From assembly GCA_963809015.1 (NCBI GenBank), contig CAWEHX010000002.1:14292-78291 (forward strand): DNA of 64,000 nt, read 5' to 3'. The notes beneath the pieces were generated by a model, which made no database searches, was not told where the DNA came from, and saw nothing but the letters and a program-made list of their open reading frames with translations. The first letter of the stretch is position 1, and the number at the start of each line of letters is the position of its first letter. This stretch comes from an uncultured Actinomycetota bacterium (lineage in GTDB: Bacteria; Actinomycetota; Actinomycetes; Propionibacteriales; Nocardioidaceae). Below are positions 52,023 to 54,874 of the stretch, piece after piece. A program made the position numbers and the translations under genes.

Positions 52023-52116
52023 CGCTCTCCTCTTCGTGTCCCGAATACCCAGCACCGTACGGACCGCCGCCGACAGCCTTAATCATCGGCACGACCAGCG
52101 CTAGTAGGTTTCGGCT

Positions 52117-53103
52117 GTGGCACGTGACCGGGTGAAGGCAGCGATCGAGGCGTACGCCGCGGGCGAGCCCGAGCTGGTCGTCGCGGGGGAGCGGTTCGTC
52201 GCGCTGGTGACGAGCATCCTCGACGAGGCGGGCATCAACTACCTGAGCGTCACCGGTCGCACGAAGGGCATCGCCTCGTTCGCGGCGAAGGCCGGCCGGG
52301 TGGTCGACGGCAGGCGGGCGTTCCCGGATCCGCTCATCGACATCACCGACCAGATCGGCGTCCGGGTCATCACCTACGTGCACAGCGACGTCTCCGCGGT
52401 CGCCGAGCTGCTCGACGACCAGGTCGTCGTCAAGGACGACCGCGACCTCGGCCAGGAGACCGCGAGCGAGGGCCGCTTCGGGTACGCGAGCCGGCACCTG
52501 CTGATCGCGCTCGACGCGGCGCGCGAGAGCGACCCGGCGTACGCCGACCTCCGCGGGCGGATCGCGCAGGTGCAGATCCGCACCGTGCTGCAGCACGCGT
52601 GGGCGGAGTTCGAGCACGACATCCGCTACAAGGGCACGGTCCCCGAGGAGCACGCGCGCGACCTGGACCGCCGCTTCACGCTGGCCGCCGGGCTGCTCGA
52701 GCTGGCCGACCAGGAGTTCCTGACGATCCGGGAGCGGTTGCGCACCGGCACCCTCGACCGCACCGACGCCGCACCCGACGACCCGCGCATCGACCCGCGA
52801 GAGCTCGCCGCGTTCCTCGCCGGGCAGTACGAGGACGCCGGCTGGTCGCGCACCGACCACTACGCCTGGATCTCCGGGCTGCTGCTCGAGCTCGGCATCG
52901 ACTCGCTCGACGAGCTCGCCGAGGTGGTCCGCGGCAGCGGCGGTGAGGACCTCAACTCCCGCATGGGCTACCGCTACCCGCCCGGCGCCGTACGCCGCCT
53001 CGACGACGCCCTGCTCGCGACGTACGGCGAGCGGTACGTCGCGCTGCACGGCAACTCCCACCGCGTGGACGCGCTTCGAGCCCGGCTGGAGAAGCTCACG
53101 TGA
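52117..53103 (+). CDS. RelA/SpoT synthetase-domain protein (small alarmone synthetase homologue)
   Basis: RTK..SFAAK, DQIGVRVI, GYASRH, QVQIRTVLQHAWAEFEH. Confidence 0.88.
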   Translation: MARDRVKAAIEAYAAGEPELVVAGERFVALVTSILDEAGINYLSVTGRTKGIASFAAKAGRVVDGRRAFPDPLIDITDQIGVRVITYVHSDVSAVAELLDDQVVVKDDRDLGQETASEGRFGYASRHLLIALDAARESDPAYADLRGRIAQVQIRTVLQHAWAEFEHDIRYKGTVPEEHARDLDRRFTLAAGLLELADQEFLTIRERLRTGTLDRTDAAPDDPRIDPRELAAFLAGQYEDAGWSRTDHYAWISGLLLELGIDSLDELAEVVRGSGGEDLNSRMGYRYPPGAVRRLDDALLATYGERYVALHGNSHRVDALRARLEKLT

Positions 53104-53969
53104 GTGCCGTCGTGATCGGCGGGGCGAACATGGACGTCAAGGCCCGCAGCGCCCGGCCGGTGGTGACGGGCACCAGCAACCCCGGTCACGTGGTCCGGTC
53201 GCCGGGCGGCGTGGGTCGCAACGTCGCCGAGAACCTCGCCCGGCTCGGCACTCCGACGGTCCTGGTTGCGGCCGTCGGCTCGGACGCATTGGGCGACGAG
53301 CTGCTCGCGGCCACCTCGGCGGCGGGCGTCGACGTGCGGCTGGTCCGCAGGGTCCCCGGCTCGACCGGCACCTACGTCGCGGTGCTCGACGACGCCGGCG
53401 AGCTCTCGGTCGCGGTCTCGGACATGGTGGCCACCGAGTCGCTCACCGCGGACGACGTGCGCGCCGCTGGCGCGGTGATCGCCCGGTCCGGGCTGCTGGT
53501 GCTCGACGGCAACCTCCCGCGCGACGCCCTCATCGCCGGTTGGGACCTGGCCGCCGCGGCCGGAGTACCGGTCGTGATCGACCCGGTCAGCGTCCCGAAG
53601 GCGGCCGCGCTGGCCGACCTGCTCGACGGGTCCCGGCCGCTGTTCGCGATCACCCCCAACCTCGACGAGCTCGAGGTGCTGGGCGACTGCGTGGACCTGG
53701 TGGCGCGCGGCATTCAGCTGGTGTGGGTGCGTTGCGGCGCCGAGGGGTCGCGCCTGGTGAACAACGAGGGCTCCACGCGACTCCCTTCGGTGGCGGCCGA
53801 GGTCGTCGACGTCACGGGTGCCGGCGACGCGATGCTGGCGGCGTTCTGCCACGGCGTCCTCTCCGGCAAGGACGTGGTCGACGCCGCGCGGCTCGGGCAC
53901 GAAGCGGCAGCGCTCACGGTGGCCTCCCCGGCCACGGTCCGGCCCGATCTCGGCGCGGCGCTCCGATGA
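53100..53969 (+). CDS. psuK: Pseudouridine kinase (PfkB family)
   Basis: GGANMD..SNPG..GGVGRNVAENLARLG, DVTGAGD; adjacent to psuG. Confidence 0.8.
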   Translation: MSAVVIGGANMDVKARSARPVVTGTSNPGHVVRSPGGVGRNVAENLARLGTPTVLVAAVGSDALGDELLAATSAAGVDVRLVRRVPGSTGTYVAVLDDAGELSVAVSDMVATESLTADDVRAAGAVIARSGLLVLDGNLPRDALIAGWDLAAAAGVPVVIDPVSVPKAAALADLLDGSRPLFAITPNLDELEVLGDCVDLVARGIQLVWVRCGAEGSRLVNNEGSTRLPSVAAEVVDVTGAGDAMLAAFCHGVLSGKDVVDAARLGHEAAALTVASPATVRPDLGAALR

Positions 53970-54874
53970 TCCCGTTGCTGACGGTCACCGACGAGGTCGC
54001 CACCGCGCTCGCGGAGGGCCGGCCCGTGGTGGCACTCGAGAGCACGATCATCAGCCACGGCATGCCCTACCCCCGCAACGTCGAGATGGCGGTCGAGGTC
54101 GAGGGGATCGTCCGCGACGGCGGCGCGGTGCCGGCGACGATCGCGATCCTCGACGGCCGGCCGCGGATCGGCCTCAGTCCCGACGACCTCGAGCTGCTCG
54201 GCAGTGACCCGGACGTGGTGAAGGTCAGCGTCCGCGACCTCCCGTACGTCGTCGCGCGCGGCCTGCACGGCGCGACCACCGTCGCCTCGACGATGCGGCT
54301 GGCGGCGCTGGCCGGTATCTCGGTGTTCGTGACCGGCGGGCTCGGCGGCGTACACCGGGGCGCGCAGCAGACCTTCGACATCTCCGCCGACCTGACCGAG
54401 CTCGGCGGCACGCCGGTCGCGGTGATCAGCGCCGGGGTGAAGAGCATCCTCGACATCGGGCTGACCCTGGAGACGCTGGAGACGTACGGCGTTCCAGTGC
54501 TGGTGCACGGGAGCGACGAGTTCCCATCCTTCTTCTCCCGCTCCAGCGGGCATGCTGCGCCGATGCGGGTCGACTCGGCGGCCGAGGTGGCCGCCGTGAT
54601 GCGCTCCGCGTGGTCGCTCGGGCTGCGCTCGGGCATCGTGGTCGCCAACCCGATCCCGGCCGAGGACGAGATCCCCGCCGACGAGATCGGCGCGATCATC
54701 GACCAGGCGCTCGCCGACATGGACCGGCTCGGCATCACCGGCAAGGACGCGACGCCGTACCTCCTCGGCCGGATCGTCGAGATCACCGACGGCGCCAGCC
54801 TCACCGCCAACATCGCGCTGGTCCGCAACAACGCCCGGCTCGGGGCCGCGACCGCGGTGGAGTACGTCAACTAG
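53966..54874 (+). CDS. psuG: Pseudouridine-5'-phosphate glycosidase
   Basis: VALESTIISHGMPYP, GATTVAST, TGGLGGVHRG, DISADLTEL, KSILD. Confidence 0.93.
   Translation: MIPLLTVTDEVATALAEGRPVVALESTIISHGMPYPRNVEMAVEVEGIVRDGGAVPATIAILDGRPRIGLSPDDLELLGSDPDVVKVSVRDLPYVVARGLHGATTVASTMRLAALAGISVFVTGGLGGVHRGAQQTFDISADLTELGGTPVAVISAGVKSILDIGLTLETLETYGVPVLVHGSDEFPSFFSRSSGHAAPMRVDSAAEVAAVMRSAWSLGLRSGIVVANPIPAEDEIPADEIGAIIDQALADMDRLGITGKDATPYLLGRIVEITDGASLTANIALVRNNARLGAATAVEYVN

Follow-up and report, generated by a model that had tools for sequence, protein, structure and literature searches.

A putative RelZ orthologue lacking its nuclease domain encoded beside psuK and psuG in Nocardioides

The small alarmone synthetase (SAS) gene that stands directly ahead of psuK and psuG in a genome of Nocardioides (genus assigned by protein names) most probably encodes an orthologue of RelZ which has lost its DUF429 domain and is likely to have retained its synthetase, with psuKG as ordinary neighbors brought there by rearrangement. 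A probability of about 70% is assigned to this reading, which was reached by analyzing a stretch of 64,000 nucleotides, hereafter the window. According to it, an in-frame deletion of about 237 codons just after the start would have removed the DUF429/RNase H-like domain in a small sub-lineage of Nocardioides, while the original upstream region and the start codon would have survived. The synthetase domain and the C-terminal helical domain would keep every clade-conserved active-site residue, and the predicted reaction is the transfer of the β,γ-pyrophosphate of ATP to the 3'-OH of GMP, GDP or GTP, giving pGpp or (p)ppGpp. The short protein would thus work without any nuclease or R-loop function, and its juxtaposition with psuK-psuG would reflect a lineage-specific rearrangement of a variable region and no conserved functional module.

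The features on which the discussion is based are the following.

52056-52116, plus strand: intergenic stretch from the divergent ABC ATPase gene to the synthetase gene (read from the sequence)
52117-53103, plus strand: gene of the RelZ-clade (actRel) SAS, 328 aa (open reading frame and Pfam RelA_SpoT)
52567-52569, plus strand: CAG codon of Gln151, at the Glu position of Syn4, ExQxRT (aligned with YjbM of B. subtilis, 5f2v/5dec)
53100-53969, plus strand: psuK, probable pseudouridine kinase of the PfkB family, 289 aa (PfkB profile, match to PsuK 7vkp)
53966-54874, plus strand: psuG, pseudouridine-5'-phosphate glycosidase, 302 aa (Indigoidine_A profile, match to YeiN 4gij)

The three genes form a tightly packed trio, all on the plus strand. 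The earliest start of the synthetase past the in-frame TAG at 52105-52107 is the GTG at 52117, and its TGA stop (53101-53103) is overlapped by the GTG of psuK at 53100 (GTGA); likewise, the ATG of psuG at 53966 overlaps the TGA of psuK at 53967-53969 (ATGA), and psuG ends with the TAG at 54872-54874. Both overlaps had been pointed out in a preliminary description of the region, and the sequence contains them. Because four-base gene overlaps are common in high-GC actinobacteria, they are taken here as a sign of co-transcription and nothing more, and psuK and psuG are probably co-transcribed with the synthetase gene upstream, as judged from this layout.

Upstream, 61 bp separate the end of the divergent ABC ATPase gene from the synthetase open reading frame. 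The intervening stretch (52056-52116) contains no Shine-Dalgarno-like sequence ahead of the synthetase GTG and carries a −10-like TAnnnT hexamer, TAGGTT (52105-52110), 6 nt before it. The upstream stretch GCTAGTAGGTTTC(C)GGCTGTG is conserved in two related loci, L105, which has the same operon as the window with a short-form synthetase, and L003, which has a long form. A leaderless start of the gene is plausible from these sequence features. A scan of 51900-55100 for sigma-70 consensus promoters gave no match, and a terminator scan of the same interval gave one terminator-like match, located inside psuG, a count within the range obtained with shuffled sequences; neither result bears on whether psuK has a promoter.

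The identities proposed earlier for the three genes agree with their Pfam matches. The synthetase matches RelA_SpoT (PF04607) with 51.2 bits against a cut-off of 27, psuK matches PfkB with 165 bits, and psuG matches Indigoidine_A (PF04227) with 430 bits along all 291 positions of the profile. The best PDB match of psuK is E. coli PsuK (7vkp, 139 bits, compared with about 65 for ribokinases), and its best NCBIfam match is pseudouridine kinase, at 153 bits, short of the equivalog cut-off of 540; psuG matches E. coli PsuG/YeiN (4gij) with 340 bits, and no other copy of it turned up in the assembly (67.6% completeness). The two enzymes convert pseudouridine into pseudouridine-5'-phosphate, and this in turn to uracil together with ribose-5-phosphate. 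The window pair resembles E. coli psuK-psuG (yeiC-yeiN) in having the same adjacent enzymes, kinase then glycosidase, and psuK lies directly upstream of psuG in the relatives as well, always. It differs from the E. coli pair in sitting behind a synthetase gene and in the absence of a psuT-like transporter gene from the cluster. Both are probably ordinary genes of pseudouridine catabolism.

The kinship of the synthetase to RelZ, already raised in the preliminary description, is borne out by 57% identity to residues 255-565 of M. smegmatis RelZ, which comprise the whole RSD and the C-terminus. Syn1-Syn3 and WAEFEH are identical in the two proteins. The close homologues, with identities of 75-91%, are for the most part 565-aa proteins with DUF429 and RelA_SpoT, among which the window gene falls in both tree and synteny; one of them, P0008, is 90% identical to the window protein, is encoded at the syntenic locus of a relative, and has the full RelZ architecture. 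The Mycolicibacterium orthologues are named "bifunctional ribonuclease/(p)ppGpp synthase" at NCBI. By these sequence comparisons, the window protein is assigned as an orthologue of the actinobacterial RelZ (MS_RHII-RSD, MSMEG_5849 of Mycolicibacterium smegmatis), within the actRel subgroup.

What sets the window protein apart from RelZ is the N-terminal DUF429/RNase H-like domain, whose absence had been noticed before: the synthetase open reading frame encodes no DUF429, and the ABC ATPase gene leaves only the short stretch upstream. No match to DUF429 (PF04250) was found elsewhere in the assembly, whose incompleteness means that a separate gene could be missed. The origin of the short form is apparent at L003, whose flanks match those of the window (ABC genes on the opposite strand, a long RelZ, PfkB, Indigoidine_A, DinB/MST and an opposite-strand MFS gene): when the two DNAs are aligned, the window keeps the upstream sequence and the GTG and lacks the DUF429 coding block. 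The alignment points to loss of DUF429 by in-frame deletion, with the promoter region and start codon kept. In the tree of close homologues, the short forms P0001, P0004, P0005 and P0007 are one clade, and the short forms P0009, P0015 and P0018 lie in a polytomy with long forms, with N-terminal junctions that look like that of the window protein. RSD-only forms are frequent, since about 25 of the 150 Nocardioidaceae matches listed sit in open frames shorter than 480 aa.

The remaining part of the protein consists of a RelQ/RelP-like synthetase fold (residues ~40-210) followed by an actRel-specific helical domain (residues ~225-328). The AF2 model has a pLDDT of 88, and its top Foldseek matches are RelQ/RelP, with a probability of 1.00 and TM scores of 0.7-0.78 by target. 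The RelQ/RelP enzymes of Firmicutes (SAS1/SAS2) share the catalytic fold and the ATP- and guanine-site motifs with the window protein (best Foldseek/phmmer matches 5dec, 5f2v and 6ex0); however, they are only ~22-26% identical to it, carry the catalytic Glu, and are without a C-terminal helical domain, which measures ~100 aa in the window protein. This domain, taken as residues ~215-328, had no Pfam match even at E = 5, was covered by none of the Foldseek matches, which span the N-terminal synthetase fold only, and returned only its own kind, at 0.77, in a protein-atlas feature search.

ActRel proteins are actinobacterial SASs recognized by an RTxLQHAWAEFEHDxRYK block and by conserved helices that extend the C-terminus, a few or more of them having DUF429 as well (PMC3153485, PMC5566576), and the window protein fits this definition in an alignment of 31 sequences. 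Another known actinobacterial SAS, RelS of Corynebacterium glutamicum (Cg2324), makes (p)ppGpp and pGpp in vitro, with a slight deviation stated for its Syn4 (PMC5566576). RelS and the single-domain actRel SASs are similar to the window protein in length (~330-350 aa), in the RSD with extended C-terminus, and in having no nuclease domain. On the other hand, the window protein belongs to the RelZ branch and owes its short form to secondary truncation (RelS was compared by description), and the Syn4 Glu that it does not have is retained by the more distant single-domain relatives sampled, whose identity is 45% or less.

This Glu was central to the preliminary description, which read the Syn4 motif as QVQIRT, with CAG at 52567 in place of a Glu codon, and the other motifs (RxK, DxxGxR, GY.S.H and WA..EH) as intact. 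The reading itself agrees with the alignment to B. subtilis RelQ/YjbM, where Gln151 is opposite the Glu ("aQVQIRT" versus "vEIQIRT"). The proposal drawn from it, namely that the enzyme is degenerate or re-specified, as signaled by the Gln, is not supported. The position is occupied by Q, S, A or T in 121 close homologues, by S or Q at 80 genome loci, and by S in 120 Mycolicibacterium-type proteins; Glu was seen only in relatives of 45% identity or less and in none of the RelZ-clade sequences examined. M. smegmatis RelZ itself, whose sequence (P0432, ABK73957.1) was obtained through cluster membership, reads PASIQVRT, with Ser at the Glu position, and is a published active (p)ppGpp/pGpp synthetase (PMC7591505, PMC10500699; also PMC5566576). 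An active RelZ-type enzyme without this Glu is among the outcomes that the preliminary description itself named as speaking against its proposal. Since every RelZ-clade sequence examined is without Glu, including that of an active enzyme, Gln151 is no sign of degeneration and would represent the normal state of the whole clade, not a private defect. In other RSH synthetases, a catalytic or metal-binding role is ascribed to this residue, and its absence throughout the RelZ clade may be connected with the Mg2+-independent activity reported for RelZ.

Apart from this position, the synthetase keeps Syn1-Syn3 as RTK (R48, K50), DQIGVR (D78, R83) and GYASRH (G122, Y123, H127), as well as WAEFEH. The alignment of 31 sequences, which takes in both Glu-bearing and Glu-less branches, has R48, K50, S54, K58, D78, R83, D110, G122, Y123, H127, Q153, T156, Q159, W162, A163, E166 and H167 as invariant, and the window synthetase departs from the clade at none of the conserved positions. 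Its dN/dS is 0.067 relative to the orthologue in L105, the second short form, similar to that of psuG (0.061); thus, the synthetase is under purifying selection. Since the active-site residues are kept and selection is purifying, the synthetase is most likely still working, and by inference from the sequence the window protein most likely behaves like the synthetase half of RelZ.

A challenge to this comes from experiments on M. smegmatis RelZ, whose separated RHII and RSD subdomains were reported as non-functional, the full-length hexamer being required (PMC7591505). Because the isolated RSD was inactive, the RSD-only window protein might not synthesize alarmones at all. One explanation is a dead or regulatory RSD protein which, having neither DUF429 nor the Syn4 Glu, binds nucleotides or RNA and makes no alarmone, and purifying selection would fit any retained function, binding included. 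This explanation is considered improbable, as full-length RelZ is also without the Glu and is active, as all the ATP- and acceptor-site residues are invariant, which is beyond the need of a binding role, and as natural RSD-only forms are so frequent in the clade. Indeed, nuclease-less RelZ orthologues that are common and under purifying selection are awkward to reconcile with an isolated RSD reported to be inactive, and a RelZ that is naturally nuclease-less offers alarmone workers a simple natural test case. Rv1366 of M. tuberculosis was considered as a precedent for an RSD-only protein. As it is probably the M. tuberculosis CapRel that a review lists among the toxSAS, it was not taken as an orthologue.

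Another explanation is a pyrophosphokinase that uses a different acceptor, which could be tRNA 3' ends, as for the CapRel/FaRel2 toxSAS, adenine nucleotides, as for Tas1, or pseudouridine nucleotides. The extra C-terminal domain of the synthetase, the presence of CapRel 7ztb among the Foldseek matches, and a weak PADLOC match (27 bits) to PDC-S33, a candidate defence family, can be cited in its favor; however, the CapRel alignment has an rmsd of ~20 Å, and the PADLOC match covers the generic RSD core only and was not counted as evidence for a role in defence. No antitoxin-like partner is evident either: the neighbors are the ABC, PfkB and PsuG genes, and no small ORF that could be a partner was seen among them. 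In addition, the gene is a chromosomal RelZ orthologue, present once and inherited vertically, and the acceptors published for RelZ are guanine nucleotides. Nothing points to the activity on pseudouridine nucleotides that had been suggested before, and a different acceptor is very unlikely altogether.

The preferred reading, of a truncated RelZ with psuKG as ordinary neighbors, also has to account for the proximity of the genes, which the preliminary description interpreted as a link between RNA turnover and alarmone signaling. RelZ-like genes were counted in 159 of 301 Nocardioidaceae genomes and psuG in 154. Among the best 150 matches listed, a distance of no more than 7 kb between them was seen only in the genus of the window (G000, G096, G294, G182, G242, G194, G266 and G200), and linked cases in other genera might, in small number, have escaped notice. 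The linkage is therefore not a peculiarity of a single strain. Of the 14 genomes sampled in the genus with both genes present, 7 show it, in one of two orders: RelZ-psuK-psuG, with overlapping genes in the window, L105 and L003, or psuK-psuG-RelZ, in L004-L007, with 5 nt between psuG and RelZ in L007.

These arrangements can be read as a lineage-specific module in which a RelZ-type enzyme is co-expressed with PsuK/PsuG, and pGpp synthesis is coupled to RNA turnover or pseudouridine salvage. The coupling might proceed by co-regulation or by nucleotide-pool effects. The overlaps, the second compact order, the recurrence of the linkage in half of the genomes with both genes, and the reported inhibition of RelZ synthesis by ssRNA (PMC7591505), through which RNA metabolism could conceivably come in, all speak for such a module. 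Against it, the genomes with the linkage are related to each other, so that one juxtaposition with later local shuffling may account for all of them, and the genes are distributed independently across Nocardioidaceae. Within the genus, 16 of the 30 sampled genomes had no psuG match, and 15 of these 16 possess RelZ; six genomes have psuKG located elsewhere than RelZ, and G248 has RelZ-DinB-MFS with no psuKG in between. Most other genera have RelZ without psuG, and whole genera have psuG without RelZ. Furthermore, psuK or psuG was found within 5-8 kb of RelZ at none of 92 loci outside the genus (12 class-level and 80 genome-contig loci), the RelZ loci of Mycolicibacterium and other genera being without them, the window protein departs from no clade-conserved position, and no paper is known to tie alarmone synthetases to psuK or psuG. 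The module is accordingly judged unlikely.

Of the link proposed earlier, the occurrence beyond one strain stands, and its generality does not: because the linkage is confined to part of one genus, the order varies, and the distribution is independent, a dedicated connection of RNA turnover with alarmone signaling is only weakly suggested. It is similarly doubtful that in this sub-lineage psuK-psuG share a single transcription unit, in two orders, with a RelZ-type synthetase that may or may not have its nuclease, and that alarmones are co-regulated with pseudouridine salvage. If this were true, it would be an undescribed tie between the pseudouridine released by rRNA/tRNA breakdown and alarmone signaling, and natural RSD-only RelZ proteins would be active, in conflict with the mutual dependence of the domains that is reported for RelZ of M. 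smegmatis. The pseudouridine linkage matters only if it is functional, which the comparative evidence makes unlikely. As an observation that sits less easily with an ordinary neighborhood, the genus keeps the three genes close in two orders, some of them tightly packed, and selection for co-expression could produce such packing.

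Three genes lie in a row on the forward strand of the window, as the preliminary description had stated, and both of the overlaps that it gave are present: the synthetase stop and the psuK start share GTGA at 53100, and the psuK stop and the psuG start share ATGA at 53966.

52117-53103, forward strand: synthetase ORF, from GTG 52117 to TGA 53101-53103; Pfam RelA_SpoT, 51 bits
from GTG 53100, forward strand: psuK; Pfam PfkB, 165 bits; nearest solved protein E. coli PsuK (7vkp)
from ATG 53966 to 54874, forward strand: psuG; Pfam Indigoidine_A, 430 bits; nearest solved protein E. 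coli PsuG/YeiN (4gij)

Read from the sequence, the GTG at 52117 is the first start past an in-frame TAG at 52105. The psuK product scores under the NCBIfam equivalog cut-off, so its name is taken from the best match and from its being always paired with psuG. On the other side, the end of a divergent ABC ATPase gene lies only 61 bp before the synthetase ORF and therefore leaves no space for an N-terminal domain, in agreement with the absence of such a domain noted earlier.

The database proteins closest to the window synthetase (75-97% identity, named Nocardioides) come in two sizes, a short one of ~328-350 aa with RelA_SpoT only, and a long one of ~565 aa in which DUF429 (PF04250) precedes RelA_SpoT, the architecture of M. 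smegmatis RelZ/MS_RHII-RSD. The M. smegmatis protein (P0432, ABK73957.1, 567 aa), retrieved via a cluster listing, is 57% identical to the window protein over its residues 255-565. A long form that is 90% identical to the window protein, P0008, occupies the same locus in a relative, where the order is ABC genes (opposite strand), the DUF429-synthetase fusion, PfkB, Indigoidine_A, DinB/MST and an MFS gene (opposite strand). Aligned at the DNA level, the two loci share the GTG and, upstream, the sequence GCTAGTAGGTTTCGGCTGTG; ~237 DUF429 codons are missing from the window, and the reading frame resumes within the linker. These three features rule out the reading of the short form as a different gene. 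Judged by these alignments, the window synthetase gene is a DUF429-less RelZ orthologue and the product of an in-frame deletion in the long form. No DUF429 was found elsewhere in the assembly, which is 67.6% complete, and a canonical long Rel is encoded on another of its contigs.

The short form is shared with a second genome (locus L105), which has the same short gene in the same operon and a protein 97% identical to that of the window. Because dN/dS between these two short genes is 0.067 (psuG, 0.061; psuK, 0.122), selection maintains the DUF429-less gene. In the tree, the window protein and three other short forms make up a supported clade, and three more with the same N-terminal junction fall in a polytomy with long forms. 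The short form is not unusual: of the 150 Nocardioidaceae matches listed, about 25, spanning seven genera and including one genome flagged unpublished (G031), lie in open frames of <480 aa. P0007, from an ENA contig and 95% identical to the window protein, is predicted as 487 aa with RelA_SpoT and PfkB in one frame, so that synthetase and psuK seem fused at the GTGA overlap; this could reflect a real fusion, a frameshift or an assembly error. The P0008 query was matched only by its DUF429 half in eight Mycolicibacterium genomes (G461, G626, G613, G480, G347, G421, G638 and G670; open frames of 247-365 aa); since other Mycolicibacterium species have the DUF429-synthetase fusion, domain fusion or fission also occurs in the other direction.

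The Glu-to-Gln change described for the ExQxRT motif (Syn4) is present, as phmmer aligns Gln151 (CAG, 52567-52569) with the Glu residue in EIQIRT of B. subtilis RelQ/YjbM, and the other synthetase motifs are intact. This position holds Q, S, A or T, and never E, in 121/121 close homologues, and Q or S in wider-family representatives of >~50% identity; relatives of ~340 aa and <=45% identity have the canonical E. Four class-level long forms are Mycolicibacterium proteins named 'bifunctional ribonuclease/(p)ppGpp synthase' by NCBI; a search with one of these gave 80 loci, each of which carries S (67) or Q (13), and the best 120 matches to an M. wolinskyi protein all carry S. M. smegmatis RelZ itself reads PASIQVRT. 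By sequence comparison, the Glu-less motif is a trait of the entire RelZ branch of actRel, the actinobacterial small alarmone synthetase subgroup. RelZ has been published as an active synthetase of (p)ppGpp and pGpp, reportedly independent of Mg2+ (PMC7591505, PMC10500699, PMC5566576), and the earlier suggestion of a degenerate or re-specified enzyme is thus unsupported; active RelZ-type enzymes without this Glu were among the findings that the preliminary description itself had named as counting against it. The absent Glu may be the basis of the Mg2+ independence. In an alignment of 31 sequences covering Glu-bearing and Glu-less branches, R48, K50, S54, K58, D78, R83, D110, G122, Y123, H127, Q153, T156, Q159, W162, A163, E166, H167 and K172 are invariant, and at every position conserved in the clade the window protein has the conserved residue.

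An AlphaFold2 model computed from the same alignment (mean pLDDT 88) matches RelQ/RelP structures over residues ~40-210 and predicts a helical domain at residues ~225-328, conserved across actRel, for which no match was found in Pfam, a protein atlas or PDB folds (Foldseek). This domain holds the block YRxPPGxVRRLDDxLL, common to Glu-bearing and Glu-less actRel proteins.

The linkage to pseudouridine genes extends beyond one strain but, among the loci surveyed, was seen only in part of the window's genus. RelZ-like genes were found in 159/301 Nocardioidaceae genomes (G186, G028 and G031 among them flagged unpublished) and psuG in 154/301 (likewise G022, G041, G077, G031 and G051); none of the individually described loci comes from a flagged genome. 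Among the matches listed, the two genes lie <=7 kb apart only in the window's genus, directly adjacent or with only psuK between them in G000, G096, G294, G182 and G242, and at ~2 kb (G194), ~5 kb (G266) or ~6 kb (G200) in others. The order is RelZ-psuK-psuG in the window, L105 and the P0008 locus (L003), and psuK-psuG-RelZ in L004-L007, L009 and L010, with a spacer of 5 nt in L007. Both genes occur in 14 of 30 sampled genomes of the genus, linked in 7 of the 14; in the other 16 psuG was unmatched and RelZ was present in 15. The psuK-psuG pair lies at unrelated sites in six genomes, and in G248 the DinB and MFS genes seen at the flank of the window's cluster come immediately after a long RelZ, psuKG being absent there. 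Outside the genus, neither psuK nor psuG was found within 5-8 kb of RelZ at 12 class-level loci and 80 genome-contig loci (mostly Mycolicibacterium/Mycobacterium, also Intrasporangium, Ornithinimicrobium, Jiangellaceae and other Nocardioidaceae), and across the 301 genomes whole genera have psuG without RelZ, the reverse also being found. The pseudouridine neighbours of the window RelZ are a genus-restricted arrangement. A full-text search found no literature joining alarmone synthetases to psuK or psuG.

In other arrangements, RelZ genes have their own conserved element, TAGGGCAGGCTG, just before the start codon, and its resemblance to TAGTAGGTTTCGGCTG of the window suggests that RelZ keeps its own promoter, with psuKG positioned on one side of it or the other. 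The most economical interpretation is a single juxtaposition in a variable region, in an ancestor of part of the genus, with local shuffling and losses afterwards. That the operons are compact in two gene orders leaves some room for the alternative that RelZ and psuK-psuG were selected for co-expression, which we regard as improbable.

Some smaller features were also observed around these genes. The divergent ABC-2 exporter (50200-52055, reverse strand) consists of two overlapping genes, for an ATPase of 341 aa and a permease of 277 aa, and is called as a single fused 609-aa gene in L105 (3074-4903; a 97%-related genome). In L005 (G294; order psuK-psuG-RelZ), a perfect ~17-18 bp inverted repeat, TTGTAACGCGACGTTCGC ... 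GCGAACGTCGCGTTACA, lies at ~8975-9075 in the psuG-RelZ spacer and may separate two units there, as a terminator or as an operator. In the window, a perfect 8-bp inverted repeat, AGACAGAT-N6-ATCTGTCT, at 54873-54894 overlaps the psuG stop codon, with no T-run after it. The next ORF (ATG 54908; P450-like by L105 synteny) begins shortly downstream of the repeat and is followed by a TetR gene; the repeat could serve as an operator for TetR or form a small hairpin.
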